Of a stretch of DNA of 64,000 nucleotides, positions 1,471 through 28,010 are shown piece by piece. Every line of letters starts with the position of its first letter. Within the stretch, counting starts at the first letter, position 1. Under the pieces are notes generated by a model. It did not search any database, had not been told where the DNA came from, and saw nothing but the letters and a program-made list of their open reading frames with translations. The stretch is from an uncultured Actinomycetes bacterium (GTDB lineage Bacteria; Actinomycetota; UBA4738; CALAEC01): assembly GCA_964551945.1 (NCBI GenBank), contig CAZKFH010000003.1, forward strand, positions 9,130-73,129. The letters are read 5' to 3'. The position numbers and the translations under genes were made by a program.

Positions 1471-3138
1471 ATGGCGGAGCTGACGATCGACCCGAAAGAC
1501 ATCGCGGAGGCGCTGCGTAAGCACGTCGAGTCGTACCGCCCCGAGACCGAGCGGGAGGAGGTGGGCTACGTCACCGACACCGGCGACGGCATCGCCCGCA
1601 TCCGCGGCCTTCCCTCCACCATGGCGAACGAGCTGCTCGAGTTCCCGCACGAGACCTACGGCGTGGCACTCAACCTGGAGGAGGACGAGATCGGGTGCGT
1701 GCTCTTCGGGGATGCGGAGAGCATCGAGGAGGGCCAGGCCGTCAAGCGGACGGGACGCATCCTTTCCATCGGCGTCGGCGACGCCGTCCTCGGCCGCGTG
1801 ATCGACCCGCTCGGACGGCCGCTGGACGGCGGAGAGCCGCTCGCGTTCGAGACCGAGCGGCCGCTCGAGGTGCAGGCTCCCTCCGTCATGCAGCGCCAGC
1901 CGGTGACCGAGCCGCTGCAGACTGGCATCAAGGCCATCGACGCAATGACGCCCGTCGGCCGTGGGCAGCGAGAGCTGATCATCGGCGACCGGCAGACCGG
2001 CAAGACGGCGATCGCGATCGACGCGATCATCGCGCAGCGGGAGAACTGGGCCACGGGCGACCCGAAGCTCCAGGTGAAGTGCGTCTACGTGGCGATCGGC
2101 CAGAAGGCATCCACGGTCCGCGAGGTCGAGACCGCCCTCCGCGAGGCCGGCGCCCTCGACTACACGGTGATCGTGAACGCTCCCGCCGGCGTCCCGGCGT
2201 CGTTCAAGTTCATCGCCCCGTACGCGGGCTCGGCGCTCGGCCAGCACTGGATGTACAACGGCCAGCACTCGCTGATCGTGTTCGACGACCTGTCGAAGCA
2301 GGCCGAGGCGTACCGCGAGGTCTCCCTGCTCCTGCGCCGGCCCGCCGGCCGAGAGGCTTATCCGGGCGATGTTTTCTACCTGCACTCGCGGCTGCTGGAG
2401 CGCTGCGCGAAGCTCTCGGACGAGCTCGGCGGCGGCTCGCTGACAGGGCTGCCGATCGTCGAGACGAAGGGGGGCGATGTCTCCGCGTACATCCCCACGA
2501 ACGTGATCTCGATCACCGACGGGCAGATCTATCTGGAGAACGACCTGTTCTACTCCGGCGTTCGTCCCGCGATCAACGTCGGCATCAGCGTCTCGCGTGT
2601 CGGTGGAAACGCTCAGACGAAGGCGATGAAGCAGGTCGCCGGGCGTCTCCGTCTCGACCTGGCGCAGTTCCGTGAGCTCGAGGCGTTCGCGGAGTTCGGC
2701 TCGGAGCTCGACAAGGCGTCCCAGGCGCAGCTCGACCGTGGTGCACGTGTGGTCGAGACGCTCAAGCAGCTCCAGTACCGACCGCTGTCGATGGAGCAGC
2801 AGGTCCTGTCGATCTACGCGGTCACGAACGGCTACCTCGACGACATCCCCGTCGACGACGCGAAGCGGTTCGAGGAGGAGCTCCTGCAGTACCTCGAGAC
2901 GCGGCACGCCGACATCGCGCGCCACATCGCGTCCGAGGGAACGCTGCCGGACGAGGTTCAGAGCACGCTTGCCTCGGCGATCGAGGACTTCAAGAAGCAG
3001 TTCCAGCCCACACAGGAGGGCCCTGCGACCACGGCCGGGGCGGCCGGCGGCCCGGTCGACAAGCGACGCGAGGACGTCGGATGGGACCGTGTCGGCGAGC
3101 CCGACCCCGCGGAGGAAGCGGCGGAAGGTACCCCGTAG
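1471..3138 (+). CDS. atpA: F0F1 ATP synthase subunit alpha (with about 45 aa C-terminal extension)
   Basis: Walker A GDRQTGKT and the typical alpha blocks ([30 protein letters not shown]). 555 aa, with an acidic Pro/Gly-rich tail after ...FKKQF. Confidence 0.97.
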
Positions 3139-5473
<2,335 letters not shown>

Positions 5474-5474
<1 letters not shown>

Positions 5475-5755
5475 TGGCCCGACTGAGCGTCACTGTCGTC
5501 TCTCCGGAGCGCGAGGTCTACTCGGGGGAGGCCGACATGGTCGTCGCCCACGGAACCGATGGTGACGTGGGGATCCTGGCGGGACACGCACCGATGCTGA
5601 TCGAGCTGGCCAGCGCCCCCGTTCGACTGTTCGATGGAACGACCGAGCGCGAGAGCATCCAGGTGGACGGCGGATTCCTCCACGTCACTCCCGGGGAGGA
5701 CGTCACCCGCGTCGACATCCTGGCCGAGAGCGCCGAGGCCCTACCCGCGTCCTAG
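5474..5755 (+). CDS. atpC: F0F1 ATP synthase subunit epsilon, short form (beta-sandwich domain only)
   Basis: GTG overlaps the atpD TAG (taGTG). 93 aa with the epsilon N-domain pattern (VVSPEREVYSGEADMVV...GILAGHAPM...GGFLHV). No C-terminal helical hairpin, and a terminator follows at once. Confidence 0.85.
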
Positions 5756-5819: not shown

Positions 5820-7400
5820 TTACTCCATCGTCTGGGGATTCAGGTGATCCACCACCCGGGAGCCGGGATTCGGCAGGATGACCCGGAACACCACCGTGCC
5901 TCGAGCGGTATCAGGGGTGTGCACCCCGTCCGAGGCGTACACGGGGGTCCCCCCGCCGGTCTTGAACTTCGGGCCCGTGTACGGGTACGCGGACCAGTTG
6001 TCCGAGCCGCTCGCTCCCGGCCCGGCGATGTCGTAGTACGCGATCTCCTTCAGCTTCGTCGGGTCGCTGAAGTCGATCACGTCCACACCACCGGTGTACC
6101 AAGCGTTCACCAGCAGGTCCCGATTGATGCCCATGACGCTCATCCCCATGTGCGCGGAGCAGTAGGAGCCCGTTGAGGCGTCGGGACGCAGGTCCCCGAC
6201 CTGGAACTCGCTCAGGAAGGCTCCCGTTTCGACGTCGGTGAAGAACATCCGGCCCGTCTTATGCGTGCCTCCCGCGGGGTTCCAGGGGCGCGACACCCAG
6301 GTCGTCTCCGGCGGGCAGCCAGTGCCGAACGACTCGTCGACCAGGTTCAGCACGGTGCCCTCATTGTTGAACATAACGGAGTGGAAGAAGTCCACCGCGC
6401 CGGGGATGTTGCCTGTGCCCCCGGAGCTGACCTCGTCGTCGACGACGACGACTGGATTCAGGGTGTCGGGGATCCCGGTCGCCGGGTCGATGTCCCAGAC
6501 CTGTCCCTGCTCGGCACAGGCCCCGCCCGCACGGTTCGTGCCCATGTGGACAACGATGTCGTGACAGGCAACAGCCGCCTCCTCCAGGACGCCCGGCGCG
6601 CAGAGGCCCCGCTCGCACCAGTCGCTCTTCCCGTCCGGGTCACCGGGGTAGGAGATCGCCGGCTGGACGGAGCTCTCCTCCGAATCCTCCGGGGCGGCGA
6701 GCGGCACTTCGACGATCTGGATCACGCCGTGCAGCGGGTTCGCGGGGCTGCCCGGGTCCTCGTCGAATGGGTTTGCGCCGTTCGTGTGCTCGGTGTCCCC
6801 GCAGGTCGGTCCCGGCCTGAGCGGGTACGAGGAGACGTACGCGAGGAGCTTGCCCTCGTCGGCCAGCCCCGGATACAGCGTGATCGTGTGGGCACCGCAG
6901 TCCGTGTAGACGGCCGCCACCTGGGTGATCGTGGCGAACGGGTTGGCCGGGTCGTCGCTCAAGGTGAAGACCCGTACACCCTCCCAGCCATCCGGGTCGC
7001 CGTGGTCCGCCGACCGAGCGGCTCCACATTCGGGACCCTCCATGGTCCGGTCCACCGCGAGGAGCAGCAGGTCGGGGATGTCGTTGCCGTTGCGGTCCCA
7101 CAGGATCGGGTCCGCCTGCAGACCGTCACAGGCAAAGTCCCTGACGAGCTGAGGGGACGCCGGGTTGGAGATGTCGAAGATCCTGAACCCGCCGACGGGC
7201 TGGTCGCCGCGGTAGTAGCCCTGAACCGCGTAGTTGCCCCAGAAGGCGAGGTCCGAGTTGACCTTCGCGTTCGGCGACGTGAACAGCAGATCCATCTTGC
7301 TGTGCCGGTCAGCGTTGTGACCGGCGGTAGCTGGTAGGGCGAAAGCGGCCAGCGGCAAAACCAGCGCTGCCACCAAGGTCATCGTTCTGATACGGGACAT
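5820..7400 (-). CDS. Secreted LVIVD-repeat beta-propeller protein, paralog 1
   Basis: ATG at 7400 follows AAGAGGAGGA. Signal peptide MSRIRTMTLVAALVLPLAAFALPATAG. Recurrent LVIVD-type motifs (FRIFDISNPASP, VRVFTLSDDP, VIQIVEV, VDVIDFSDPTK). I reject the ORF-track start at 7493 because it lacks an RBS and a signal peptide. Confidence 0.8.
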   Translation of the reverse strand: MSRIRTMTLVAALVLPLAAFALPATAGHNADRHSKMDLLFTSPNAKVNSDLAFWGNYAVQGYYRGDQPVGGFRIFDISNPASPQLVRDFACDGLQADPILWDRNGNDIPDLLLLAVDRTMEGPECGAARSADHGDPDGWEGVRVFTLSDDPANPFATITQVAAVYTDCGAHTITLYPGLADEGKLLAYVSSYPLRPGPTCGDTEHTNGANPFDEDPGSPANPLHGVIQIVEVPLAAPEDSEESSVQPAISYPGDPDGKSDWCERGLCAPGVLEEAAVACHDIVVHMGTNRAGGACAEQGQVWDIDPATGIPDTLNPVVVVDDEVSSGGTGNIPGAVDFFHSVMFNNEGTVLNLVDESFGTGCPPETTWVSRPWNPAGGTHKTGRMFFTDVETGAFLSEFQVGDLRPDASTGSYCSAHMGMSVMGINRDLLVNAWYTGGVDVIDFSDPTKLKEIAYYDIAGPGASGSDNWSAYPYTGPKFKTGGGTPVYASDGVHTPDTARGTVVFRVILPNPGSRVVDHLNPQTME

Positions 7401-7505
7401 CCAATCCTCCTCTTTACGAGTGTTCCTGGCTGCGTCCCGGTGGGATGCGCTTGACCAGGAGGACATGACGGACTCGGGGCCGGGCGTGGCCACCGAGGTA
7501 GGGCC

Positions 7506-7588
7506 GCGGGCATCAACCTCCCTCCGGCTCCGTGAACGGGAAGGCGACGGAGCGTGGTAATCATGACTGGTTCTTTTTCACTAGGCAA
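7506..7588 (-). promoter_or_regulatory. AT-rich promoter plus conserved 5' leader module, copy 1 (upstream of LVIVD paralog 1)
   Basis: Minus strand reads TTGCCT (7588..7583), a 17-nt spacer, CATGAT (7565..7560). Then comes stem GCTCCGT/ACGGAGC, GGAGGGAGG, TTGATGCCCGC. About 77% identical by manual alignment to 11649..11731. Confidence 0.45.
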
Positions 7589-7653: not shown

Positions 7654-9501
7654 CTAGAGGGACTTCACGGTCTCGCATTTGCGGGCCCGGTCGCTTCCCG
7701 GCCCGCCGATGCAGGTGTCCTTGCCGGCCTCGCCGACCAACAGGTCGTCGCCGGCGCCACCCTTGCCGGTGTCTTTCCCGCCACCGAGACAGATCGTGTC
7801 GTTGCCCTTCCCGCCCTTGACGGTGTCCTTGCCGTTGAGCGAGGCGATCACGTCGTCACCGGTCGTGCCGTCGAGCACGTCGTTCGCCGAGCCGCCGACG
7901 ATCGTGGCGACCTTGCCCCTGCAGCGGACCTCGGGGATCAGCTGCGTCTGGGTCTGAGGGTTGAGGCTCGCCAGGTTCACCTCGCTCGCAGCGATGTCGG
8001 CCCGCAGCGAGAGGAAGCCGCGGGCGCCGCCGTCGCTCGAGGACGGGTCGTGGATACCGTCGGTCGCGTAGATGGTGAGGCTGTCTCCCGCCAGGGCCGG
8101 GCCCTCGTACCAGTACGCTGCCCAGTTGTCGAAGCCGTTCACGTCCGCGGCACTCGGCGGGATGCCACCGGCGCCGTCGTAATGGGCGACCTCGGTGGGT
8201 TTCGTCGGGTCGCTGACGTCGATCACGGTCACGCCGCCCATGTAAAGGGCGTACACCAGAAAGTCCTTGTCGTCATCGGTCGCGACGAAGTTGCCGAGGT
8301 GGGCGCTGCAGTACTCGGTCTCCCACGACTTGTCCGGCAGGAAGTGGCTGATCTTCTTGCCGGTCTGCGTGTCGAAGAAGAAGAGCCGGCCGGTGTCGCC
8401 GGGCTGCGAGGCGGTTTCTCCGGAGAGAGGTGTCTCCGGAGGGCAGCCTCCGCCGAACGACTCGTCCTCGAACTTCACGACGCTGCCGTCCCACGTGAAC
8501 GTGGCCGAGTGCCAGAAGTCCACGACCACCCCGGTGTCGGTCGCGTTTCCCGTTGTCCCGGTCTCGTCGACCGTGTCGTCGTAGACCCAGAGGGGATGCT
8601 CTGTGTCGGGGAGCCCATTCGGCTTGATCCGCCACATCTGTGCCTGCTCGGCACAGGCTGCCGCCGCGAGTCGCAGGGGGACGAACACCGCGATGTCGTG
8701 GCACGCTCGCATGCCCTGGACCAGGCTGGAGTCGGTTGCGGCGCCGAGGCCGTGCTCCGAAGGAACGAACTTGTTGTCGGGGTCTCCGGGATAGGTGATC
8801 TTCGGCTCCGCGATCTCAGTCGCCGTCACGGCGCCCAGTGGAGTCCCGGCGCTCCAGGAGACCTCGACCACCTGGATGACACCATGCAGCGGGTCCCGAC
8901 CGGCTGCCGGGCCCCGCACGGGACCGCATGTCGGGCCCGGCCGCAAGGGATACGACGCGTTGTAGAGCAGGACCCGGTTGTTCGCCGGGTCGGGCCAAAG
9001 GGTGTTCGTGTGCGAGCCGCAGTCGAGATAGACGGATCCGATCTGGCTGGGCACATTCGGGTTGGAGATGTCGAAGATGCGAAGCCCTTCCCAGCCGCTG
9101 GGGTCGTCGTGCGCGGTGGTGTTGGTCGCCCCGCAGTTCGGCCCGGACATGGTCCGATCGACGGACGTGAAGGCGATGTCGGCCTGGCCATCTTGGTCTC
9201 GATCCCAGACCGTGATGTCGTTCTGGGCCCCGAGGCAGGCCATGTTGCCGACCAAGACGGGGCTTGCCGGACTCGTGATGTCGAAGATGCGGAAGCCCCC
9301 GTAATCGCCTTGGTACGCGTAGTTCCCCCAGAAGGCCATATCGGAGTTCGTCAGGTTCCTGCTGTTTGGAGAATTGAACAGCAGCGACATGTTCGGGCTG
9401 TGTTCGTCGAACATGTTGTGGTTCGCGCCTGCGGGCAGCGAGACCGTCACGAGCGCCACCAGCGCGATGGCGAGCAGGGGGATTCGGACGCGTCTGAGCA
9501 C
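7654..9501 (-). CDS. Secreted LVIVD-repeat beta-propeller protein, paralog 2, with C-terminal RTX-type Ca-binding nonapeptide repeats
   Basis: GTG start 6 nt after GGAGG and a signal peptide. Alignable with paralog 1 along the whole propeller (FWGNYA, GGFRIFDI, SYPLRPGPTCG, PLHGVIQVVEV, ACHDI, CAEQAQMW, DESFGGGCPPET, YCSAHLG, LNPQT). Extra tail has GGxGxD-type repeats (GGSANDVLDGTTGDDVI...GGKGNDTI...GGAGDDLLVG). Confidence 0.8.
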   Translation of the reverse strand: MLRRVRIPLLAIALVALVTVSLPAGANHNMFDEHSPNMSLLFNSPNSRNLTNSDMAFWGNYAYQGDYGGFRIFDITSPASPVLVGNMACLGAQNDITVWDRDQDGQADIAFTSVDRTMSGPNCGATNTTAHDDPSGWEGLRIFDISNPNVPSQIGSVYLDCGSHTNTLWPDPANNRVLLYNASYPLRPGPTCGPVRGPAAGRDPLHGVIQVVEVSWSAGTPLGAVTATEIAEPKITYPGDPDNKFVPSEHGLGAATDSSLVQGMRACHDIAVFVPLRLAAAACAEQAQMWRIKPNGLPDTEHPLWVYDDTVDETGTTGNATDTGVVVDFWHSATFTWDGSVVKFEDESFGGGCPPETPLSGETASQPGDTGRLFFFDTQTGKKISHFLPDKSWETEYCSAHLGNFVATDDDKDFLVYALYMGGVTVIDVSDPTKPTEVAHYDGAGGIPPSAADVNGFDNWAAYWYEGPALAGDSLTIYATDGIHDPSSSDGGARGFLSLRADIAASEVNLASLNPQTQTQLIPEVRCRGKVATIVGGSANDVLDGTTGDDVIASLNGKDTVKGGKGNDTICLGGGKDTGKGGAGDDLLVGEAGKDTCIGGPGSDRARKCETVKSL

Positions 9502-9536: not shown

Positions 9537-9565
9537 AATCTATTGAGGGTCCCCCGGGGTGTCAA
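9537..9565 (-). promoter_or_regulatory. Near-consensus sigma70-type promoter for LVIVD paralog 2
   Basis: Minus strand reads TTGACA (9565..9560), a 17-nt spacer, TAGATT (9542..9537). It lies about 35 nt upstream of the GTG at 9501. Confidence 0.5.
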
Positions 9566-9638: not shown

Positions 9639-11576
9639 TTACTCCTTGCCGGTGTAGCGGAAGATCCACAGGCCGCTATCCCGGTCGCTCATCAGGATCA
9701 ACGGGCGCTTTCCGAAGTCCTTGCCCTGACCCTGATCCTTCTCGGACAGCAGGCACTGGCCGGCACAGAGTGGGTACACACCCCAGAAGTCATTGCCGCC
9801 ATCCGCGATGTAATGGCCGACCTCCGTGATGCCCCCGGGTCCGAATGTCGCGACCCGAAGACCAGCGTTGTAGTACGAGAAGTACGCGATGTCCTTCTTC
9901 AGCCGTGGATCCGTCTTCACCTCGTGGACCGTGAGGCTGCCGAAGCCGGACGCGTAGGCGGGGTCCTGCGCTTCCGGGATCGAGTAGGTGTCGAGCTCCG
10001 GCAGGTCGGTCGTGTTGCTGTGGAGGTGGGTGTACCCCCACCCGTCGAACACTCCGCCCCTGGCGAACAAGGTCTCCCCTGGTGTCCCGATAGCGATGTC
10101 GGCACCCTCGGATCCGGTGTAGTTCGGGGGTGAGTTGAACAGCTGGTGCATGGCCCGGTGTCCGATGCAGATCGCCGGGATCTGCTCGTCGTAGTCCTCG
10201 CCCTGGCTGCCGCAGATGAACGCGTCCGGGAGGAGGCCGTTGCGCGCTCCAACGTGACTCTGTCCGATCGCGACCAGGTCGTACCCTGCGTCCTGGCCGT
10301 TCTTCACCTTCGTGGAGAACGTGCAGGTTCCGCGACTGAACACTATGGCGTCCCGCCCGCTCACCGCCTGCGACGGGAAGCTCCCCGCCGTGCAGCCGAG
10401 GCCGCCGAACACCGTGTCTCCCGTAAAGCCGCTGGGATAGAGGTCGGCGAGGTCCGGCGTCCAGCCGAACTCGCCGCATCCCGTGTCCCCGGCGTTGGGT
10501 CCGGTCGTGATTCGGCAGAGCGTCCGGGTCGGGGAGAAGTCCTCATCGGTGGAGATGACGTAGTCGCCATCCTGGTCGAAGTAGGACTGGTGACTGTTCC
10601 CCTCGGGAATCTCGAATGCCGGCTGCTCCGGGTCGGGGCTCGAGTAGTCCGAGTCAGTGACGAAGACCGGTGCCGCCGGATTGTTGACGTTCAAGAGCAC
10701 TTGACCCGCGTCCCAATAGGAGACGAGCAGGTAGTTCGTTCCATCGATGACTTTCTGCTGCATGTCGTGATGGAAGACGGAGTCACCGTTGGCATAGGAG
10801 CCCTGCGCGCCGGGCCAGTCCTCGAGGCCCTGCTCGGCTACGAGGACGGCCGGGCCTGCGCCCGTTATCAGGGGTGTGACGTCGAAGATGTCGACATCCT
10901 TGAGATCCTGGTTGTCGGTGCCGACGGCGTACGCCTTGCCATTCCAGACGAAGCCCTGCACCGAGTGGTACGTGTGATGCGTCTGGTTGGCAACGGGCGG
11001 AACGTTTTCCCCGAAGGACCCCTTGAGTACACCCGCGGCCGGGTTCGTCACGTCCCAAAGGTTCATTCCGGCCGTGGCGGGGGATGCGGCGTTGCACACT
11101 TCGCTGTTGTTCAGGAAGTAGCGGCGGCCGTTGTATTCGATCACGTGCGCACCTTCGCCCGGGTACGTGTTCGGGGGAGAGGTGAGGAATCCGACCTTCG
11201 TGGGGCTGGCCGGGTTGCTGACGTCGACAACGTGTGTTCCGGGGCCGTGAGCTGCCGCGCCGGTACGCCCAGCGCATTCGGGAGCCCAGGCGTTGAGGTA
11301 CGCGTAGTTCCCGAACGCGGTGACATCGGCGATGCCGCCGGGGACGTTCGTAAGCTTCAGCTTGCCGACAAGCTGGATGTTCTTGTTCGACGCCGGCAGG
11401 TGACCGTCCGTCGCGCCGTGCTGGTGGTCGTCTTCCTGGACCCGCGGACCGTCTGCGGGGTCGTAATCGTCCCAGCCGTAACTATCGGGAGCTGGGGGGT
11501 TGTTCGCCGCGGCGAGCGCGCCTGATCCGAGAACCAGGGCGACGGCCACGAGCAATGACAGATATCGCTTGGGCAT
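9639..11576 (-). CDS. Secreted LVIVD-like beta-propeller protein, paralog 3, with inserted PA (protease-associated)-like domain
   Basis: ATG follows GGAGGA and a signal peptide (MPKRYLSLLVAVALVLGSGALAAA). LVIVD-type motifs (HVVDVSNPASP, MNLWDVTNP, VDIFDVTP, LLNVNNPAAP, GLWIFRY). PA-like signature at about residues 405-440 (GRDAIVFSRGTCTFSTKVKNGQDAGYDLVAIG). Confidence 0.75.
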   Translation of the reverse strand: MPKRYLSLLVAVALVLGSGALAAANNPPAPDSYGWDDYDPADGPRVQEDDHQHGATDGHLPASNKNIQLVGKLKLTNVPGGIADVTAFGNYAYLNAWAPECAGRTGAAAHGPGTHVVDVSNPASPTKVGFLTSPPNTYPGEGAHVIEYNGRRYFLNNSEVCNAASPATAGMNLWDVTNPAAGVLKGSFGENVPPVANQTHHTYHSVQGFVWNGKAYAVGTDNQDLKDVDIFDVTPLITGAGPAVLVAEQGLEDWPGAQGSYANGDSVFHHDMQQKVIDGTNYLLVSYWDAGQVLLNVNNPAAPVFVTDSDYSSPDPEQPAFEIPEGNSHQSYFDQDGDYVISTDEDFSPTRTLCRITTGPNAGDTGCGEFGWTPDLADLYPSGFTGDTVFGGLGCTAGSFPSQAVSGRDAIVFSRGTCTFSTKVKNGQDAGYDLVAIGQSHVGARNGLLPDAFICGSQGEDYDEQIPAICIGHRAMHQLFNSPPNYTGSEGADIAIGTPGETLFARGGVFDGWGYTHLHSNTTDLPELDTYSIPEAQDPAYASGFGSLTVHEVKTDPRLKKDIAYFSYYNAGLRVATFGPGGITEVGHYIADGGNDFWGVYPLCAGQCLLSEKDQGQGKDFGKRPLILMSDRDSGLWIFRYTGKE

Positions 11577-11648
11577 CGATTCCTCCAGGTGGGCTAGTGA
11601 TGCGAGCGGACAATGGCTGAAACGGATCCAGCCAGGGACTGCGAGCTT

Positions 11649-11731
11649 GCGGGCAATCAGCCTCCCTCCTCTCCGCGACCGGGCGTAGCACGGAGCGGAG
11701 TAATAATGACTAGTTCTTTCGGACTAGGCAA
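11649..11731 (-). promoter_or_regulatory. AT-rich promoter plus conserved 5' leader module, copy 2 (upstream of LVIVD paralog 3)
   Basis: Minus strand reads TTGCCT (11731..11726), a 17-nt spacer, CATTAT (11708..11703). Then comes stem CTCCG/CGGAG, GGAGGGAGG, CTGATTGCCCGC. This is the counterpart of 7506..7588. Confidence 0.45.
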
Positions 11732-11757: not shown

Positions 11758-11763
11758 TAGAAT
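11758..11763 (+). promoter_or_regulatory. -10 element (TAGAAT) placed for a leaderless murA transcript
   Basis: TAGAAT is followed by 6 nt (ctgcag) and then the murA GTG at 11770. No SD-like purine run lies between them. Confidence 0.4.
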
Positions 11764-11769
11764 CTGCAG

Positions 11770-13041
11770 GTGGACAGGCTCCTCATCACGGGTGGGCGGC
11801 GTCTCTCGGGCGCCGTCGACATCGGCGGGGCGAAGAACTCCGCCTTGAAGCTGATGGCGGCAGCCCTGCTCACGGAAGGCCGGACCATCCTGCGCAACGT
11901 TCCGGATATCGCGGACTGCCGCACGATGGCCGAGGTCCTCGAGAGGCTGGGTGCCGGCGTCGAGCGGCGTGACCACGAGCTCGAGATCGACGCCTCGGGC
12001 CCCCTCGGGATGGAGACGCCGTACGAGCTCGTGCGCCGGATGCGCGCCTCGATCCTGGTGCTGGGACCGCTGCTTGCCCGTCACGGGAGGTCTCGGGTGG
12101 CGATGCCGGGTGGATGCAACATCGGCCGGCGCAAGATCGACCTCCACGTCCGCGGGCTGGAGCGCATGGGCGCGGAGTTCTCCTACGACCACGGCTACCT
12201 GGTCGCGAACACCAAGGGCCCCTTGCGCGGCGCCGTCATCTCGCTCGACTTCCCGAGCGTCGGTGCCACCGAGAACCTCCTTATGGCCGCGGTGGCAGCA
12301 CGGGGGACCACGGTCATCGAGAACGCGGCGCGCGAGCCGGAGATCCAGGACCTGGCCGATTTCCTCACCGCCATGGGCGGACGGATCAACGGCATCGGCA
12401 CGCCGACCGTGGAGATCGAAGGGGTTGATGCATTCGTCCCGACCGATCACACCGTGATCCCCGACAGGATCGAGGCCGGGACGTTCGCGGTCGCCGCATG
12501 CATCACCGGCGGTGACGTCCTGTTGCGCGGAGCTAGAGCGGATCACCTCGATCTGCCGTTCGCGAAGCTCGCCGACGCAGGCGCGCGCATCGCGATCGAG
12601 GAAGGCGGCATCCGCGTGACGATGGATGGGCGCGCGCGCGCCGCCGACCTGGTGACCCTGCCGTATCCGGGCTTCCCGACCGACCTGCAGCCGCCGATCA
12701 TGGCGATGCTCGCGACCGCCGAGGGGACGAGCATCCTGACGGAGAACGTGTTCGAGAGCAGGTTCATGTTCGTGGACGAGCTGAACCGCATGGGAGCGGA
12801 CATCCGCACCGAGGGACACCACGCCGTGATCCGCGGCGTGCCGAAGCTCTTCTCCGCGCCGGTGCGCGCGCTCGACCTGCGGGCCGGTGCCGCGCTCATC
12901 GTGGCGGCGCTCGGTGCAGAGGGTGTGACCGAGATCACGGACGTCGGGCACGTCGACCGCGGCTACGAGGATGTCGACGGGAAGCTGGCGTCTCTGGGGG
13001 CCGAGCTCAGCCGCCAGCCGGCGATGGCGCTGGCTCCCTGA
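11770..13041 (+). CDS. murA: UDP-N-acetylglucosamine 1-carboxyvinyltransferase
   Basis: 423 aa with typical MurA blocks (ITGGRRLSGAVDIGGAKNSALKLMAAALL, LPYPGFPTDLQPP, FESRFMFVDELNRMGA, VDRGYEDVDGKL). The usual active-site Cys position reads GGCNIGRR. Confidence 0.95.
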   Translation: MDRLLITGGRRLSGAVDIGGAKNSALKLMAAALLTEGRTILRNVPDIADCRTMAEVLERLGAGVERRDHELEIDASGPLGMETPYELVRRMRASILVLGPLLARHGRSRVAMPGGCNIGRRKIDLHVRGLERMGAEFSYDHGYLVANTKGPLRGAVISLDFPSVGATENLLMAAVAARGTTVIENAAREPEIQDLADFLTAMGGRINGIGTPTVEIEGVDAFVPTDHTVIPDRIEAGTFAVAACITGGDVLLRGARADHLDLPFAKLADAGARIAIEEGGIRVTMDGRARAADLVTLPYPGFPTDLQPPIMAMLATAEGTSILTENVFESRFMFVDELNRMGADIRTEGHHAVIRGVPKLFSAPVRALDLRAGAALIVAALGAEGVTEITDVGHVDRGYEDVDGKLASLGAELSRQPAMALAP

Positions 13042-21950: not shown

Positions 21951-23681
21951 TCATCGATCCGTCGGCCCCACGATGATCGTGCCCTGCATGGCCCCGTCCG
22001 TGGGGTTCGTTGTCGATGTGTACTTCCACACGCTTTCGGTGTTTCCGAAGTCGTATCGGTAGGACCCTCGAGGAGGGATGTCCCCCGGGGAGTCCATCTC
22101 GGTGCATGGGTTGGATGTGACGGGAGGCGCGCAAACTTCCTCACCGAAGGTGCGGGCCTGGGTCCTCACATTGTGAGCCACCGTGTCCAGGTTCACCCAC
22201 AGTACCGAGGTGTCCCGTGGGATCGCCACGATCGATGGCACGAACTGGCCGGCCTGCATCTCGATCGTCGCGGTATCCGGCGTGTCGAGCACGTGCACGA
22301 CTCGGTAGATGAGGCCCTGCATGTCGGCGACGTACATCGCCCCATCCGGACCGAATGTGAGGTCCATGGGGAGCACGCCGGTCATGAACTCCCGCTTGCG
22401 CTCGGTAAGGCCCGTCTCCGGATCGATGTCGACGTGGGTGATCTTGTGGCCCGTGGGGACGGCGCCGTTGAGGTTCCACAGGCTGCCCCACTCGCCCACG
22501 AACAGGTCACCGTCGTAGCGCTGCGGGAACTCGCCCCCGCGCTCGAAGGCGAGCCCGGTGGTCCCGTTGTGCGCCTCCCGGAAGAACATGATTGGCCGCA
22601 GAACCTCGCTCTTGCGGCATGGGCCGAAACGGTCGATCGTCGCGGGGTTGGGGTTGTCCTCGGGTTCGAACGTCTCGGGGTGGGGGTGTCCGCCGCCGAT
22701 CTCTCCGATATCCGGGACCGGGAAGTTGTTCGAGTGGCCGCCGTAGAGGCACGAGGGGAAGCCTGCGTCGTCGATGACCGGGCCCATGATCGGGGCGCCG
22801 ATCGCGTCGTGACCCACGACCTTCGTGTCGTTGACGTCGGTGCGGAAGAGGGGCTCGTTCGAGGCCGGCTGATCGGACCCGTTCATCGGCGTGTAGATCA
22901 TCGAGGGATCGCCGGGCCAGAAGTCCACATCGAAGATGTTCCGGTAGCCGGGCGAGACAAGCACGCTCTCGTCGTCCATGCCGTCCGCGGCGAACTCCGC
23001 GTCGTCATCGACGCGCACGTTGTTCCTCAGGTCAACGTTGTTCCACGAGGGATCGACGCGGAGAATGGCTCCGGTCCACGGTTTGACCTCGACCTGTCCG
23101 GCCGGGCAGGGCTCACCGTCGGGCGGTCCGCACTCGATACCGTCGTCGGTGCCGTTGCCGTTGGCCACGTACAGGGCGCCGTCGGGCCCGAAGGTCATGC
23201 CGTTCGTCTGGTGCCGGCCGTTGGGGATGTTGTGCAGAACCGTCCGACGCTGGTCGTAGGTGCCGTCCGCGTTCGTGTCCCGGAGTGCCAGGATGCTGCC
23301 CTTGTTGTCGGCGTTGTCGGCCGCGTACAGGGTGCCGTCCGGGCCGAACGTGATCCCGAGGAGCTGTCCGAAGCCCTCGGCCACGATCTGCGGGGGACCA
23401 CCGACGCCGCCGAGGTCCTCGAACGCGAGGATGCGCCCGTCTCCGAGCCCGAGAAGGACGGCGACGTACAGCCGTCCGTCGGGACCGAAGGTGAGGCTGG
23501 AGGGGAGGAGTCCCGGGGTCGCGGCGAAAACCCCCGCGCCGAATCCGACGGGGACGGTTAGTCCATTAGCCGCCTGGGGGAGGCTGGACTGCGAGCTCGC
23601 GGGGGTTTGCCCGAGCAGGGATGCCGTGAGGCTCGCTGCGATCAGAACGATCTGCGCCCGCCTGCCGAACCTGCGTGTCAA
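21951..23681 (-). CDS. Secreted GSDH/NHL-like beta-propeller (PQQ-type sugar dehydrogenase fold) fused to a C-terminal cupredoxin-like domain
   Basis: TTG start 6 nt after GGGAGGA. Repeated FGPDG blades (LTFGPDGRLYVA, ITFGPDGTLYAAD, MTFGPDGALYVANG, LTFGPDGAMYVAD). C-terminal roughly 110 aa reads VLWVNLDTVAHNV ... GAMQGTIIVGP. Confidence 0.75.
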   Translation of the reverse strand: MTRRFGRRAQIVLIAASLTASLLGQTPASSQSSLPQAANGLTVPVGFGAGVFAATPGLLPSSLTFGPDGRLYVAVLLGLGDGRILAFEDLGGVGGPPQIVAEGFGQLLGITFGPDGTLYAADNADNKGSILALRDTNADGTYDQRRTVLHNIPNGRHQTNGMTFGPDGALYVANGNGTDDGIECGPPDGEPCPAGQVEVKPWTGAILRVDPSWNNVDLRNNVRVDDDAEFAADGMDDESVLVSPGYRNIFDVDFWPGDPSMIYTPMNGSDQPASNEPLFRTDVNDTKVVGHDAIGAPIMGPVIDDAGFPSCLYGGHSNNFPVPDIGEIGGGHPHPETFEPEDNPNPATIDRFGPCRKSEVLRPIMFFREAHNGTTGLAFERGGEFPQRYDGDLFVGEWGSLWNLNGAVPTGHKITHVDIDPETGLTERKREFMTGVLPMDLTFGPDGAMYVADMQGLIYRVVHVLDTPDTATIEMQAGQFVPSIVAIPRDTSVLWVNLDTVAHNVRTQARTFGEEVCAPPVTSNPCTEMDSPGDIPPRGSYRYDFGNTESVWKYTSTTNPTDGAMQGTIIVGPTDR

Positions 23682-23743
23682 CTGGATTCCTCCCGCGCTG
23701 GTGAAGATGCCCTGCGGAAGGATTCACCGCGACTCCCGGGTAC

Positions 23744-23767
23744 CCCTTTGTGCACATGCACAAAGGG
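23744..23767. promoter_or_regulatory. Perfect 11-bp inverted repeat (candidate operator) in a divergent promoter region
   Basis: CCCTTTGTGCA ca TGCACAAAGGG. It lies 63 nt upstream of the GSDH-like gene start (23681, minus) and 36 nt upstream of the S8 peptidase ATG (23803, plus). Confidence 0.5.
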
Positions 23768-23802: not shown

Positions 23803-25395
23803 ATGAGCGGGCGCGGGCAGCTTCGTGTGCATCTGGTGGGCATCCTGGTCCTGATCGGGGTGCTGGCCTACCCGGGCGCCCCCGCGATCCCCGCTGAGGC
23901 ACCTCTTTCTCTCGCCAAGATCGATCCCGTCCTCTCGACGCAGGTCGCGGTCCGGGGCTTCGCTCCGGCGATCCTCACGTGGGACCGCACCCAGGTCGAA
24001 CGCTCGGAGATCTCCTCGTATCTCGCGGAGAACGAGATCGACGCGAACGTCCTCAACGGGCTCTCCGTCGCCTTCGCCTGCGCCGGGAGCGCCCAGGACC
24101 TGAGCCTTCTGGCCGAGGCCCCCGGTGCCGTGTCCGTCTGGGGGGACCGGGCTCTGAAGCCGGCCCTCGACGAGAGCACCCGGACCGCGTTCAACGGAGA
24201 CCCGAACACGATCTGGCAGGGACAGGGGATCACCGGAAAGGGCGTCGCGATCGGCGTCGTGGACACCGGTATCGACGCGAGCCATCCCGACCTCCAGTCC
24301 GGTATCAAGACGAAGCTGAACATTCGCGTGCTGCTCTCGAAGCACGACGTCACCGGGCCCTACTCGGATCCCTGTGGGATCACCGACACTTATTCCGAGC
24401 AGCTCATCGACTCCGAGCTCACGAGCGGACACGGCACGCACCTCGCCAGCGTCGCTGCCGGCGACGGCACCGTCTCCGGCGGCCGCTACCGGGGAGTCGC
24501 GCCGGGTGCCGACCTCATCGGAGTCGGCGTGAGCGAGTCGACGGCGCCCCAGGCGACGGCCTGCCTGTCCGACCAACCGTGTGCCCCGGAGGGGCAGACC
24601 TACCTATCCCTTCAGGGTGCGATCGCGGGGATGAACTACGTGCTCTCGACGGGGCTCGAGGGCTGCTACGCGCCCTACTGCCCGGAGTTCAAGCCGCTCA
24701 CCGCGAAGGTGATCCTCGCCGGCTGGGTCCAGGAGGGTCTTCACGACCCGTGGCACCCGATGAGCTGGATCGTGGGCGACCTGGGTTGGTACGGGATCAA
24801 CGTGGTCTTCCCCGTTGGGAACGAGGGCCCCACCGCGAGCGACTGCTCGTCCGCAGCGACCTGCTACTTCAATTCCTATGCCGTCGCGGACATGGCCATC
24901 GGTGTCGCGGCCACACCGCGAAGGACTGACGCGACTCTGGAGCCGTACTCCTCTCGAGGCGACCCCATCGCCCGGCAGGCGCGTGGCGAGACCATCAAGT
25001 ACGCCCCGATGCTGTCGGCTCCGGGAACGGGAGTCGTCGCCGCGAGACGGCCGGGATTCGCTCCGGTCGCACAGCTTCCTCTGTCGAACCTCGGTGGCAA
25101 GCCGCACAGCGAGATCGGCATCGATCGCCGGTACGTTCCCCTGACGGGGACGAGCGTCGCCGCCGCCCACGTGGCCGGCGCGATCGCCCTGATGCAGGAA
25201 GCGGCGTTCAAGGGGAGCGGCTGCTACCTCACGGCGCAGCGCGTCATCGACATCCTGCGATCCACCGCGGACCCGATGTCCGGATTCCAGGCTCACGAGA
25301 TCGGTTCCGGAGCGCTCGATGTGAAGAGCGCCGTCAACCAGGCTCGCTCCGGCGGTCCGTCCTCGCCGGATCCCTGGATGTGCCCCAGCTCCTGA
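23803..25395 (+). CDS. Secreted subtilisin-family (S8) serine peptidase
   Basis: Catalytic triad motifs VVDTGIDASHPDL (Asp), SGHGTHLASVAAG (His), LTGTSVAAAHVAGAIALM (Ser). Hydrophobic N-terminal signal. No obvious SD before the ATG. Confidence 0.9.
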   Translation: MSGRGQLRVHLVGILVLIGVLAYPGAPAIPAEAPLSLAKIDPVLSTQVAVRGFAPAILTWDRTQVERSEISSYLAENEIDANVLNGLSVAFACAGSAQDLSLLAEAPGAVSVWGDRALKPALDESTRTAFNGDPNTIWQGQGITGKGVAIGVVDTGIDASHPDLQSGIKTKLNIRVLLSKHDVTGPYSDPCGITDTYSEQLIDSELTSGHGTHLASVAAGDGTVSGGRYRGVAPGADLIGVGVSESTAPQATACLSDQPCAPEGQTYLSLQGAIAGMNYVLSTGLEGCYAPYCPEFKPLTAKVILAGWVQEGLHDPWHPMSWIVGDLGWYGINVVFPVGNEGPTASDCSSAATCYFNSYAVADMAIGVAATPRRTDATLEPYSSRGDPIARQARGETIKYAPMLSAPGTGVVAARRPGFAPVAQLPLSNLGGKPHSEIGIDRRYVPLTGTSVAAAHVAGAIALMQEAAFKGSGCYLTAQRVIDILRSTADPMSGFQAHEIGSGALDVKSAVNQARSGGPSSPDPWMCPSS

Positions 25396-25396
25396 G

Positions 25397-27355
25397 CTAG
25401 CCGACCGTCTCCTCGAAGCACCCGTACGACGACCCGTCATCCGACGTTGCCGACCCGTCGAATCTCCAGTCTCCGGGTCCAAGCTGAGCGTCGGCCAGGA
25501 AGTGTCCCTGCGTGAGAGGGATAGGGTCGAGCGAGAGGGCCGCGGACCCCGGCATCCAGGCGGTGATCGACGGAAGGCCGTCGACGGCGACCTCCTTGCC
25601 GTCGGGACCGATGAACGTGAAGTGCACCTCGAAACGACCCTGGCCCAGGTCGATCACGTACCCCTCGACGGAGCCACCATCGGGCGTGTCCAGTGTGCTG
25701 ACGGTCGGCTCATTCTGTTTCGTTCCCTCGATCCGAAGGGCTGTGCAGAGCGTCGCGAACTCGAGCGGCACCTCGACCGAGTCGGTGCCCTGCTGCACCA
25801 GCGCCGCCACTTTCCAGGGGCCGCCGATCGACAGGTTGCTGCCGGCTCCCTCGTACAACCCATCGTCCGTTGGATCCATCTCCAGTGTCGAGGGGGCGAC
25901 CTCGGCGGTTCCCAGGAAGGAGAACTGCAGGGCGACGCGCTGAGCCTCGATGGCTTCGCCAGAGTCGAAGTCGTTCGCCTGAAGGGCGAACTGATTCGAG
26001 CCCGCCAGTCCCGGACTCACCTCGAGGCGGAGGCGAACCGATCTCGCGAAGTCTGATCCCGTGACCGTGACGCCGGGGGGAGGCCCGGCTCGAGCAGGCA
26101 CTTGCGCCGGAGGCACGAGTGTCGCGAGGACCGCCGCTGCCCCCACGGCTGCAACCGCCAACGTGAGCTCCCCGCGAGAGATTCTTCGCAGCCCCCGGAG
26201 GGATGTCGCCGCTTCCCCAACGTGCCGGAAGCGGTTCACGGCGCCCAGTCCTGCCAGAGCCAGGATGAGCCCCGATTTCACCAGCACGGCGATGCCGTAG
26301 CCGGTCGTGAACAATGCACCCCAGTCGCCGATCTCGTTGATGGAGCGGATCACGCCGGTGACGACGACGGCCGCGAGCGCGAAGCCGGCCACCAGGGAGA
26401 AGCGCCGAACGGCCGAGGCCTTCGTCTCGCCCGGCTCTCCCCGGATCCCGACCAGCAGGGCCGCCAGGCCGCCGAGCCAGATGCCCGCGGCTGCGAAGTG
26501 CACCCACTGCCCCACGACCTTCGCCCAGGCCAGATCGCCGCGCGCCGCGGCGTGGCCCGCGATCACGTGGGCGAGCATCGCGCCTGCCGCCCCGAGTCCC
26601 ACCACGATCAGGGCTCGACGGCGAGATGCCGGCCACGCACGGGCCGCAAGAAGACCCGTCCCCGCGATCATGATCGCGCCACCCCGATACAGGAGGGCTC
26701 GACCCACCTTCGTCGGCAGGAACTCGCCGAACCCGGCACCCGAGCTCTGCTGCTGCGCCAGCGCGAGAACCACGAGGCCGACCACGGATACCAGCCACGC
26801 GCACGCCGCCAGCCGATAGACGCCGCGCGGGGAGTCGCCGAAGGCGATACCTCCAACCCAGGCTGCTCCGATCAGGAGGCCCAGCCCCAGGAAGATGATG
26901 ACACGTCCGGCCATCTCCAGCGGCGAGGACGGGGGTGTCTCGGGGGCTCCGGCAGAGGGAGTTACTCCGGCCGGGGAGACTCCGACCCCGAAGGCGAACG
27001 CGCCACCGCTGGGATGGCCATCGACCTGGGAGACGGTTCTCCACGTGACCGTGTAGACGCCTTGTTCGAGGGGCGGCGATGAGACGCTGAGGGCTCGAGG
27101 GTCACTCGAGGCCGCGTCGGCTCCACCGACGTCGAGCTCGGCTCCCGTGGTATCGAGGAGGACGATCGAGGACAGTGCCGGTTCGGGCGCCTCGGTGAAC
27201 CTGAGGACGATCTCGGATGGCGCCTCGGTGAGCGTCGCGCCGTCCGCGGGCTCCGACGCTTCCAGCAACGCGTGAGCATCGGCGGGTCCGGGCAGCATCA
27301 GGGCCAGAACGATGGCAGCTCCCGCTGCCGCCCAAACCCGCCGCGCTCTCGTCAT
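25397..27355 (-). CDS. CopC-CopD fusion copper transport/resistance protein (YcnJ-like) with C-terminal extracytoplasmic domains
   Basis: Signal peptide then HALLEASEPADGATLTEAPSEIVLRFTE (CopC with N-terminal His). Polytopic CopD-like core, then about 220 aa of beta-rich domains. ATG at 27355, just after the upstream stop, preferred over 27388. Confidence 0.85.
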   Translation of the reverse strand: MTRARRVWAAAGAAIVLALMLPGPADAHALLEASEPADGATLTEAPSEIVLRFTEAPEPALSSIVLLDTTGAELDVGGADAASSDPRALSVSSPPLEQGVYTVTWRTVSQVDGHPSGGAFAFGVGVSPAGVTPSAGAPETPPSSPLEMAGRVIIFLGLGLLIGAAWVGGIAFGDSPRGVYRLAACAWLVSVVGLVVLALAQQQSSGAGFGEFLPTKVGRALLYRGGAIMIAGTGLLAARAWPASRRRALIVVGLGAAGAMLAHVIAGHAAARGDLAWAKVVGQWVHFAAAGIWLGGLAALLVGIRGEPGETKASAVRRFSLVAGFALAAVVVTGVIRSINEIGDWGALFTTGYGIAVLVKSGLILALAGLGAVNRFRHVGEAATSLRGLRRISRGELTLAVAAVGAAAVLATLVPPAQVPARAGPPPGVTVTGSDFARSVRLRLEVSPGLAGSNQFALQANDFDSGEAIEAQRVALQFSFLGTAEVAPSTLEMDPTDDGLYEGAGSNLSIGGPWKVAALVQQGTDSVEVPLEFATLCTALRIEGTKQNEPTVSTLDTPDGGSVEGYVIDLGQGRFEVHFTFIGPDGKEVAVDGLPSITAWMPGSAALSLDPIPLTQGHFLADAQLGPGDWRFDGSATSDDGSSYGCFEETVG

Positions 27356-27359
27356 ACCT

Positions 27360-28010
27360 CTACGCGGCCGGCCGCTTCCGAAGCGCAACGACGAGGGCGA
27401 TCAGCGCAAGGATGCCGCTTCCGATCGCGAACCAGAGGGCAGTCTTGTCGCCACCGCCATCGTCGGCCCGGAGTCGGTCGACCGCCTGCGCGAGCTCACC
27501 GGCCGTCGGGTCCTGCTCCGGGAACTGGATATCCGCCGGGACATTCACGTTGGAGAAGGTGTCCTCGCTCGAGGTGAAGAACTCATCGATCTCCTGCCCG
27601 GCCACGGTTCCGGTGACGTGGTAGGTGTAGGTCCCCGGCCGGGTCGGGATGATGTCCGCCTCGAACAGCCCGGGCTCGCTGAACGCCTCGTCCATTGGAA
27701 GCGGTCCGGTGGTCGTCGTTGAGGTCTCGTCGCCAAACAGGATCTCGACCTGGATGTCGGCGTCGGAGATCGGGGGTCCTTCTTCGTCCTCGCTGGGTCC
27801 AACTTCGCTGAGGTGAACGCCGGCCGAATTCTGGTACCCCGCATAGGTCGGTTCGTTGCCCCAGCCGACGACCATGACGATGTCGCCGACCACGCGGTGC
27901 TCGTGCGCGCCGGCGGGGGCGGCCTGCATGACCATCAGCGCTCCCATCGCAAGCATCGAGAACGTCACCGCGAGCAGGCGGCGGCGTCCCGTTCGGATTG
28001 CTCGATTCAT
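27360..28010 (-). CDS. Secreted, C-terminally membrane-anchored protein with YcnI-like architecture
   Basis: ATG at 28010 lies 7 nt after GGGAGGA. Signal peptide ends AAPAGA, then HEH. About 150 aa beta-rich domain, acidic linker, single C-terminal TM (ALWFAIGSGILALIALVVAL) and a basic tail RKRPAA. Assignment rests on architecture and position next to CopCD, not on sequence motifs. Confidence 0.6.
   Translation of the reverse strand: MNRAIRTGRRRLLAVTFSMLAMGALMVMQAAPAGAHEHRVVGDIVMVVGWGNEPTYAGYQNSAGVHLSEVGPSEDEEGPPISDADIQVEILFGDETSTTTTGPLPMDEAFSEPGLFEADIIPTRPGTYTYHVTGTVAGQEIDEFFTSSEDTFSNVNVPADIQFPEQDPTAGELAQAVDRLRADDGGGDKTALWFAIGSGILALIALVVALRKRPAA

Follow-up and report, generated by a model that had tools for sequence, protein, structure and literature searches.

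Two of three adjacent genes for secreted proteins with LVIVD repeats are preceded by the same non-coding module in a 64,000-nucleotide (nt) stretch of DNA from an uncultured Actinomycetes bacterium (GenBank assembly GCA_964551945.1, contig CAZKFH010000003.1; this whole stretch is called the window below). The module is a real, conserved, previously undescribed and mechanistically ordinary cassette, in which a DNA part that reads as a housekeeping-sigma-type promoter with a predicted start is joined to an RNA part predicted to form the first ~48 nt of the transcript. The explanation that we favor, with about even confidence, is that the module is a regulated promoter followed by a leader that stabilizes the 5' end of the mRNA or loads ribosomes. 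Two CTAG repeats in the promoter spacer would be the binding site of a candidate transcription factor encoded elsewhere, and one signal would control both the 526-amino-acid (aa) LVIVD gene (paralog 1) and the 645-aa gene that combines LVIVD repeats with a PA domain (paralog 3). The leader, which we do not take to be a sensor, would favor high expression of the secreted proteins: a GC-rich hairpin at, or 1-2 nt from, the predicted 5' end would keep 5'-end-dependent RNases away from the mRNA, and a doubled, very strong Shine-Dalgarno (SD) sequence together with the start codon of a short upstream open reading frame (uORF) would keep a ribosome loaded near the 5' end.

No new class of mechanism is opened by this module. 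It offers a testable handle on the control of abundant, uncharacterized secreted LVIVD beta-propeller proteins in desert and soil Actinomycetota known solely from metagenomes; a literature search on LVIVD returned nothing on regulation.

Conservation of the module in related genomes

A preliminary description of this DNA had aligned the two sites by hand at about 77% identity and had called their flanks unalignable. Counted on the printed sequences, minus-strand positions 7588-7506 and 11731-11649 are identical in 65 of 85 columns (~77%), and a MAFFT alignment of the surrounding 220 nt confined the similarity to this block. All of the sub-motifs listed previously were found, namely, TTGCCTAGT, AAAGAAC, AGTCAT[G/T]ATTAC, CGCTCCGT...CGGAG, GGAGGGAGG, and GATGCCCGC or GATTGCCCGC, and the distances to the real start codons are 105 nt (ATG at 7400) and 72 nt (ATG at 11576), close to the ~110 and ~70 nt given before. 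A 32-nt pattern with 28 fixed bases matched exactly these two sites (0 expected, from 100 shuffles), and an nhmmer profile recovered both copies with an E value of ~1e-28 and found no third copy in the 64-kb window.

We then screened ~100 loci from GTDB genomes with homologues of paralogs 1 and 3, together with eleven contigs reached through the closest paralog-3 homologues. A search of relatives had been proposed in the preliminary description, and it yielded four extra copies. One lies in L105, an 899-kb ENA contig with the same synteny; one lies in L006, an Actinomycetota metagenome-assembled genome, between murA and the paralog-3 orthologue; and two (L108a and L108b) lie in L108, a JGI contig, before the paralog-3 orthologue and before the gene for a 503-aa LVIVD protein with 46% identity to paralog 1. 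(L104 is the DNA of the window itself, as recovered from a Logan assembly.) The total is six distinct copies in four genomes, always ahead of the same two gene types. Known copies occur in SRR6868922, ERZ27311206, JGI 3300053671, GCA_030155045.1 and the SC-S/M3-S bins. The presence of both copies in the window and in L108 implies that the two-copy arrangement predates the split of these two genomes.

Across the orthologous intergenic regions, the pairwise identity of the module averages 69-74%, compared with 29-45% for the adjoining non-coding DNA, which is also rich in indels. This island of conservation between diverged flanks excludes a recent duplication and argues for purifying selection on the module. 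The previous claims that the module is a functional shared cis-regulatory element and that it is not a recent segmental duplication carrying its flanks are both strengthened by this contrast, the former also by the four further copies and the latter also by the two copies in L108. The six copies are 65-78% identical to one another (94% for copy 2 and L105) and do not sort into orthologous pairs, as expected when only constrained positions remain.

We find it hardly credible that the module is a non-functional remnant of duplication or gene conversion between two upstream regions. The copies are indeed only 4 kb apart, ahead of genes that share LVIVD repeats, but the flanks cannot be aligned, the surrounding non-coding DNA has decayed to the low identity just given, and pairs from the same genome are no more alike than pairs from different genomes. 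Moreover, L108 retains both copies; its proteins share just 46-72% identity with their counterparts in the window, and the protein identities exclude near-identical strains.

The module has a patchy distribution. In L106, L107, L229-L234, L235, L236, L237 and L239, it is missing from orthologues with 66-78% protein identity, and nhmmer profiles built from 2, 3 or 6 copies found no further ones over the ~100 homologue loci (Jiangella, Kribbella, Gaiellaceae, Solirubrobacteraceae and others). On this sampling, the module looks lineage-restricted to a small clade of uncultured Actinomycetota. Pattern scans gave a similar picture. The first exact module pattern had no match. The gap between TTGCCTAGT and AGTC is 11 nt, and a pattern with this gap matches all six copies; among the matches listed from a scan of genome contigs with this pattern (at least 119 in all), only L209 survived the nhmmer filter, and it has the same nhmmer score as L006 and is probably the same contig. 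Fourteen matches to a 12-16-nt-gap pattern in genome and metagenome contigs (L090-L103) were rejected as chance, being mostly in coding DNA of unrelated taxa. Viral contigs gave 0 matches with one pattern and 1 chance match with the other, and the module was not matched in PLSDB plasmids.

The predicted promoter and its CTAG repeats

The promoter layout TTGCCT-17/18-CAT[A/G/T]AT is present in five of the six copies, with a spacer of 17 nt (18 nt in L006), and A2 and T6 of the -10 hexamer are kept in all six. In these respects, the -35/17-nt/-10 geometry put forward in the preliminary description stood. Because the GC-rich hairpin at the end of paralog 2 comes immediately before copy 1, this copy requires a promoter of its own. 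We rejected a reading as a promoter for an extracytoplasmic function sigma factor (GAAC ... CGT), which would have a 20-nt spacing and whose GAAC is not kept in L006. We also rejected a MerR-type promoter: such promoters have spacers of 19-20 nt, unlike the 17-18 nt found in five copies, and the hexamers that can be placed at 19-20 nt lack T6.

The spacer holds two C[TC][AG]G cores that are exactly 14 bp apart in all six modules. They read CTAG-N10-CTAG in copy 2, L105, L006 and L108b, and L108a has CTGG in both cores. CTAG is ~7-fold depleted in the window (27 observed versus ~192 expected from base composition), and the two modules account for three of these 27. A distance of 14 bp was the commonest short spacing between one CTAG and the next in the 1.09 Mb of loci that we fetched, and nearly all of the pairs at this spacing lie upstream of these genes.

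The same spacing recurs in a second layout, type B, found at three paralog-3 orthologues without the leader (L107, L229 and L239). Here the layout is CTAGT-N4-ATTGACTAG. Its right half gives the -35 TTGACT, from which N18 leads to TATCCT or TAGAGT, and upstream of this half stands the other CTAG; there is no SD and no uORF. CTAG-N10-CTAG is intact in L107 and L229, and L239 has the same layout with CTAT as its second core. (In L229, the upstream neighbor is gpsA, not murA.) Because the CTAG pair keeps its spacing while its place relative to the -10 shifts by 14 bp, a separate bound factor fits better than contacts with polymerase. Half-sites at a fixed spacing conserved across orthologous promoters support the CTAG pair as a candidate operator, and the position of this candidate site between the -35 and the -10 suggests that the factor would most likely be a repressor. 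The preliminary description had proposed a shared operator and/or a cis-regulatory RNA; the operator gains support from the recurring CTAG pair, and a sensing or elaborate RNA found none, as described below. The 26-bp candidate operator could be used for fishing out the regulator.

Like lac- and tet-type repressor promoters, the module has a repeated, partly palindromic element (TTGCCTAGT-N8-ACTAGTCAT) that fills the spacer; unlike these repressor-operator precedents, its half-sites are arranged differently in the module and in type B. We know of no named operator that matches CTAG-N10-CTAG.

The CTAG pair also bears on whether a dedicated regulator is needed. We consider it distinctly unlikely that the module is a plain strong promoter with a leader, in which the CTAG repeats and the AT-rich spacer are conserved only for contacts with RNA polymerase. 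Such a promoter would account for a left CTAG that overlaps the -35 (TTGCCTAG, or TTGACTAG in type B), for a right CTAG that abuts the -10 in the module, and for our failure to find a nearby regulator gene or other sites. It would not account for a second CTAG that lies downstream of the -35 in the module and upstream of it in type B, always 14 bp away, or for the parallel change of both cores from CTAG to CTGG in L108a; furthermore, no such element occurs in the promoter of paralog 2, the stronger one by consensus.

Close relatives have rewired orthologous genes among at least three promoter layouts, namely, the module, the type B CTAG promoter and a TGTGCAC-N2-GTGCACA palindrome. In L106, a TGTGCA..TGCACA(AAGGG) element replaces the module ahead of the paralog-3 orthologue (two copies, 185-230), and the element also stands beside LVIVD genes in L107 (5318-5335). 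It is probably an operator through which a second and distinct regulator acts on LVIVD genes in this clade.

Hairpin, Shine-Dalgarno sequence and uORF of the leader

In the alignment of the six copies, CGCTCCGT follows the -10 by ~7 nt and is succeeded by 11-15 variable C/U-rich nt and by (A/G)CGGAG(C), giving a 7-8 bp hairpin. In all module (type A) copies, the hairpin starts 7 nt past the -10 hexamer, at an mRNA 5' end that is itself predicted. For the two copies of the window, this predicted end falls at G7553 and G11696, give or take 2 nt. The hairpin arms pair in 90.7% of cells, compared with 29-50% when the partner columns are slid; four pairs are invariant, and one varies on one side (U-A to U-G). 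The variable distance between the arms (13-15 nt) suggests that the inverted repeat acts as an RNA hairpin and not as a DNA site for a dimer. A miniature GCUCCG/CGGAAGG hairpin is present at the predicted 5' end of the type B promoter in L229. Stem-loops at the 5' terminus stabilize the mRNAs of Escherichia coli ompA, through its 5' untranslated region, and Bacillus subtilis aprE, whose leader combines the stem-loop with a strong ribosome-binding site. The module resembles these in having a GC-rich hairpin within 1-2 nt of the predicted 5' end; it differs from them in having no sequence relationship and in that the position of its hairpin rests on a predicted transcription start.

Folds of the whole leaders shared nothing past the 5' hairpin, and the main SD had different partners, or none, in the six folds. 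Folding energies of leader segments were not below those of dinucleotide shuffles (z of -1.4 to +2.0), and no terminator-like site was found in the leaders. Rfam gave 0 matches at the gathering score over the whole window and, at E <= 10 around the copies, only two chance-level opposite-strand matches near copy 1 and none near copy 2, in agreement with the earlier remark that the leader was not recognized as a known riboswitch class. A covariance model of the leader alone, run over the window and 0.97 Mb of related DNA, found only the six known copies, none of them detached from the promoter. Two borderline matches to the covariance model (E ~0.02-0.03), in L029 inside an ORF and in L039, were judged to be chance. 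The latter (5857-5920, plus strand; 19.9 bits on a rough calibration) is intergenic and has a leader-like order of elements, CGCGCTCC-CACCTTTTCCCTGC-CGGAGG...GGGAG...CCCGC.

These results make it very doubtful that the leader is a sensing cis-regulatory RNA (a riboswitch, a thermometer or a leader bound by a protein or small RNA) in which the C/U-rich loop and the G-rich SD switch pairings. Like riboswitches and other Rfam leaders, the module is a conserved 5' leader ahead of functionally related genes, and its RNA part is conserved as well as its DNA part. The minimum-free-energy folds of copy 1, L108a and L108b have no hairpin and instead join the CCUUCC(C) loop to GGGAGG, such that two exclusive folds exist, and four G-runs occur within ~17 nt in all six copies. 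However, unlike riboswitches, the leader has no Rfam match, no covariation and no expression platform, and its only helix carries a variable loop, which in copy 2 and L105 is not CCUUCC. A ligand-binding riboswitch is unlikely because there is a single helix, its loop is free in length and sequence, and an expression platform is missing.

Still more doubtful is the bolder proposal that the leader is a new clade-specific regulatory RNA, in which an anti-SD-like loop is set against the G-rich tract and switched by a cation, temperature or a factor, in combination with a CTAG-N10-CTAG operator/regulator pair. The G-rich tract, with its four G-runs, could form a two-tetrad G-quadruplex and contains the ribosome-binding site of the uORF. 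If true, this new RNA class would switch the translation and stability of secreted LVIVD beta-propeller mRNAs.

Judged by its sequence, the conserved 3' end of the module is an SD plus a start codon that opens a short uORF, a feature absent from the preliminary description. A purine tract ending in GGAGG is present in all six copies and reads GGAGGGAGG in five. The main ATG follows GGAGG at a distance of 72-105 nt, and ~28 nt separate GGAGG from the predicted 5' end (the host 16S rRNA is outside the window). The start codon, which is ATG in four copies and TTG in two, stands 2-4 nt past the last GGAGG and 6-8 nt past the first in every copy, and after the CCC/TCC GCN that follows it the similarity ends. 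The uORFs are 44, 20, 20, 8, 8 and 13 codons long, and the only peptide that they have in common is M-P/S-A.

Control that depends on the uORF, whereby its translation sets the output of the main ORF through coupling, re-initiation or unfolding of the leader, strikes us as possible but unlikely. The SD, the ATG or TTG and CCC/TCC-GCN are present in six of six copies, and one indel turns ATG to TTG with the start kept; in addition, copy 2, L105 and L228 have the uORF stop codon just upstream of the main SD, 17 nt short of the main ATG, and in copy 1 the uORF overlaps the main ATG. Nevertheless, the length of the uORF and its distance to the main start vary, the uORF ends at least 50 nt upstream in L006, L108a and L108b, and open frames this long arise by chance in GC-rich DNA. 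The peptide is not conserved either: the 20-codon uORFs of copy 2 and L105 differ at 9, 5 and 7 sites in codon positions 1, 2 and 3, with 10 non-synonymous versus 3 synonymous codon changes, which gives no sign of selection on the peptide. The shared ...RSHH-stop ending of copy 2, L105 and L228 is a nucleotide-level likeness just upstream of the main SD, and it persists in L108b, where the match to the 3' end of the copy 2 uORF lies outside the uORF. If the uORF matters, initiation would count and not the product. Leader-peptide (attenuation) control was rejected, the peptides being unrelated beyond M-P/S-A and no terminator having been found in the leaders.

For a leader that protects its mRNA by binding a ribosome, there is a precedent in the STAB-SD of Bacillus thuringiensis cry3A, reportedly described by Agaisse and Lereclus in 1996. 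Located close to the mRNA 5' end and ~125 nt ahead of the start codon, this SD-like sequence binds 30S subunits and stabilizes cry3A mRNA against RNase J1 (PMC4113751). Similarly, the SD of the module lies near the predicted 5' end and far upstream (72-105 nt compared with ~125 nt) of the gene's own ribosome-binding site, the gene is for an abundantly made exported or accumulated protein, and a bound 30S subunit or ribosome is proposed to block 5'-to-3' decay. Unlike in the STAB-SD, a hairpin precedes the SD in the module, the host is an actinobacterium, and the 5' end is predicted. The 48-nt leader, with its hairpin, double SD and uORF start, is a potential expression or stability element for high-GC hosts.

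Several observations weigh against a regulated promoter with a stabilizing leader. The sample consists of six copies from four related genomes only. The predicted promoter agrees with the sigma-70 consensus at no more than 8 of 12 positions and was missed by a simple promoter scan, in which respect the previously described geometry fared less well, and the best -35 of L108b (TTGACA) lies two bases further upstream, which gives a 19-nt spacer in a copy that has TATATA. We found no regulator gene next to the module in the window, L105, L108 or L006, and a position-weight-matrix scan of the window and related loci found no further operator sites. In the module, the CTAG elements are arranged partly as a direct repeat, and type B has them as a 7-4-7 palindrome (CTAGTCA-N4-TGACTAG), so that a single mode of binding does not obviously suit both layouts. 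As for the RNA part, the covariation in the stem that the preliminary description had suggested looking for did not appear: there were 0 compensatory pairs in the hairpin among six sequences, which have little power, and the conservation of the hairpin could thus act at the DNA level. Lastly, a STAB-SD by definition starts no translation, whereas the module has a start codon after the SD in all six copies, which makes it likely that a short uORF is translated; because of this contradiction, we do not claim membership of the STAB-SD class proper.

The LVIVD locus and other features of the window

The window is actinobacterial DNA with a GC content of ~67%, and the features discussed here are collected in Table 1.

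Table 1. Positions of the two module copies, their parts and the surrounding genes (window coordinates), and of the type B promoters (coordinates of the named locus)
Feature	Position	Strand	Description
Module copy 1, whole	7506-7588	minus	Upstream of the 526-aa LVIVD gene
Copy 1, predicted -35	7583-7588	minus	TTGCCT, from sequence; conserved in 5/6 copies
Copy 1, predicted -10	7560-7565	minus	CATGAT, 17 nt after TTGCCT
Copy 1, operator-like element	7563-7588	minus	TTGCCTAGT-N9-CCAGTCAT; fills the promoter spacer with two C[TC][AG]G cores spaced by 14 bp
Copy 1, hairpin	7527-7553	minus	GCUCCGU-13 nt-ACGGAGC; ~7 nt after the -10, at the predicted mRNA 5' end
Copy 1, G-rich double SD	7517-7525	minus	GGAGGGAGG
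Copy 1, uORF	7379-7513	minus	ATG start, MPAALPRW... (44 codons); runs out of frame over the main ATG at 7400
Module copy 2, whole	11649-11731	minus	Precedes the 645-aa LVIVD+PA gene; stands back-to-back with the murA promoter
Copy 2, predicted -35	11726-11731	minus	TTGCCT
Copy 2, predicted -10	11703-11708	minus	CATTAT
Copy 2, operator-like element	11706-11731	minus	TTGCCTAGT-N9-CTAGTCAT; CTAG at 11724-11727 and 11710-11713
Copy 2, hairpin	11671-11695	minus	CUCCGUG-11 nt-CGCGGAG
Copy 2, SD	11661-11669	minus	GGAGGGAGG
Copy 2, uORF	11594-11656	minus	TTG, 20 codons, MPASSQSLAGSVSAIVRSHH; stop 17 nt before the main ATG
atpAGDC	1471-5755	plus	Followed by three minus-strand genes for secreted proteins
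Paralog 1	5820-7400	minus	526 aa, LVIVD repeats; ATG at 7400
Paralog 2	7654-9501	minus	615 aa, LVIVD plus RTX repeats
Paralog 3	9639-11576	minus	645 aa, LVIVD plus PA domain; ATG at 11576
murA	11770-13041	plus	Beyond paralog 3
Type B promoter, L107	1554-1600		CTAGTCACAATTGACTAG
Type B promoter, L229	1267-1320		CTAGTCCATATTGACTAG
Type B promoter, L239	632-690		CTAGTACGGATTGACTAT

Paralogs 1 and 2 are 46% identical in protein; paralog 3 resembles them at the level of the LVIVD motif only and can barely be aligned with paralog 1. The preliminary description had spoken of LVIVD paralogs 1 and 3, which is apt insofar as both have LVIVD repeats but not insofar as paralog 3 is no close paralog and has a PA domain. 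Its claim that paralog 2 has an unrelated consensus promoter was correct, since we located TTGACA-17-TAGATT at 9565-9537 on the minus strand. This near-consensus promoter and its short leader (9537-9565, with the leader running to 9501; ...CCCACGACCCGGAGGTG) are kept in L105 (13290-13341) and L106 (3670-3720), where the counterpart reads TTGACAC...CTCAATACATTCG...CCGGAGGTG. The conservation of the paralog 2 promoter in these two loci implies that each of the three genes retains its own promoter type.

The murA gene is seemingly leaderless, with a perfect -10 (TAGAAT) 6 nt ahead of its GTG start (11758-11772, plus strand). The block formed by this -10 and the start is 91% conserved over the window, L105, L006 and L108.

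Elsewhere in the window, a palindrome that reads CCCTTTGTGCAC-AT-GCACAAAGGG in the printed sequence occupies 23738-23767, between two divergent genes, one for a 576-aa GSDH/DUF7133 beta-propeller protein (21951-23681, minus strand) and the other for a subtilase (23803-25395, plus strand). This palindrome is the same element as the TGTGCA..TGCACA(AAGGG) sequence of L106 and L107 described above. The GSDH/DUF7133 propeller gene is followed by a fourth LVIVD gene (20278 to ~21960, minus strand), and a gene for a CopC-CopD fusion (25397-27388, minus strand) adjoins the subtilase region.

The mature N termini of the three LVIVD proteins, with signal-peptide cleavage sites placed by eye and marked here by a slash, are rich in histidine: A/GHNADRH, A/NHNMFDEH and ...DDHQHGATDGH (encoded at 7300-7340, 9400-9440 and 11400-11460, respectively). 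Histidine is residue 2 of the mature protein in paralogs 1 and 2 and in the L108 orthologue (A/THPAAKH), and these N termini may be a hint of metal binding.

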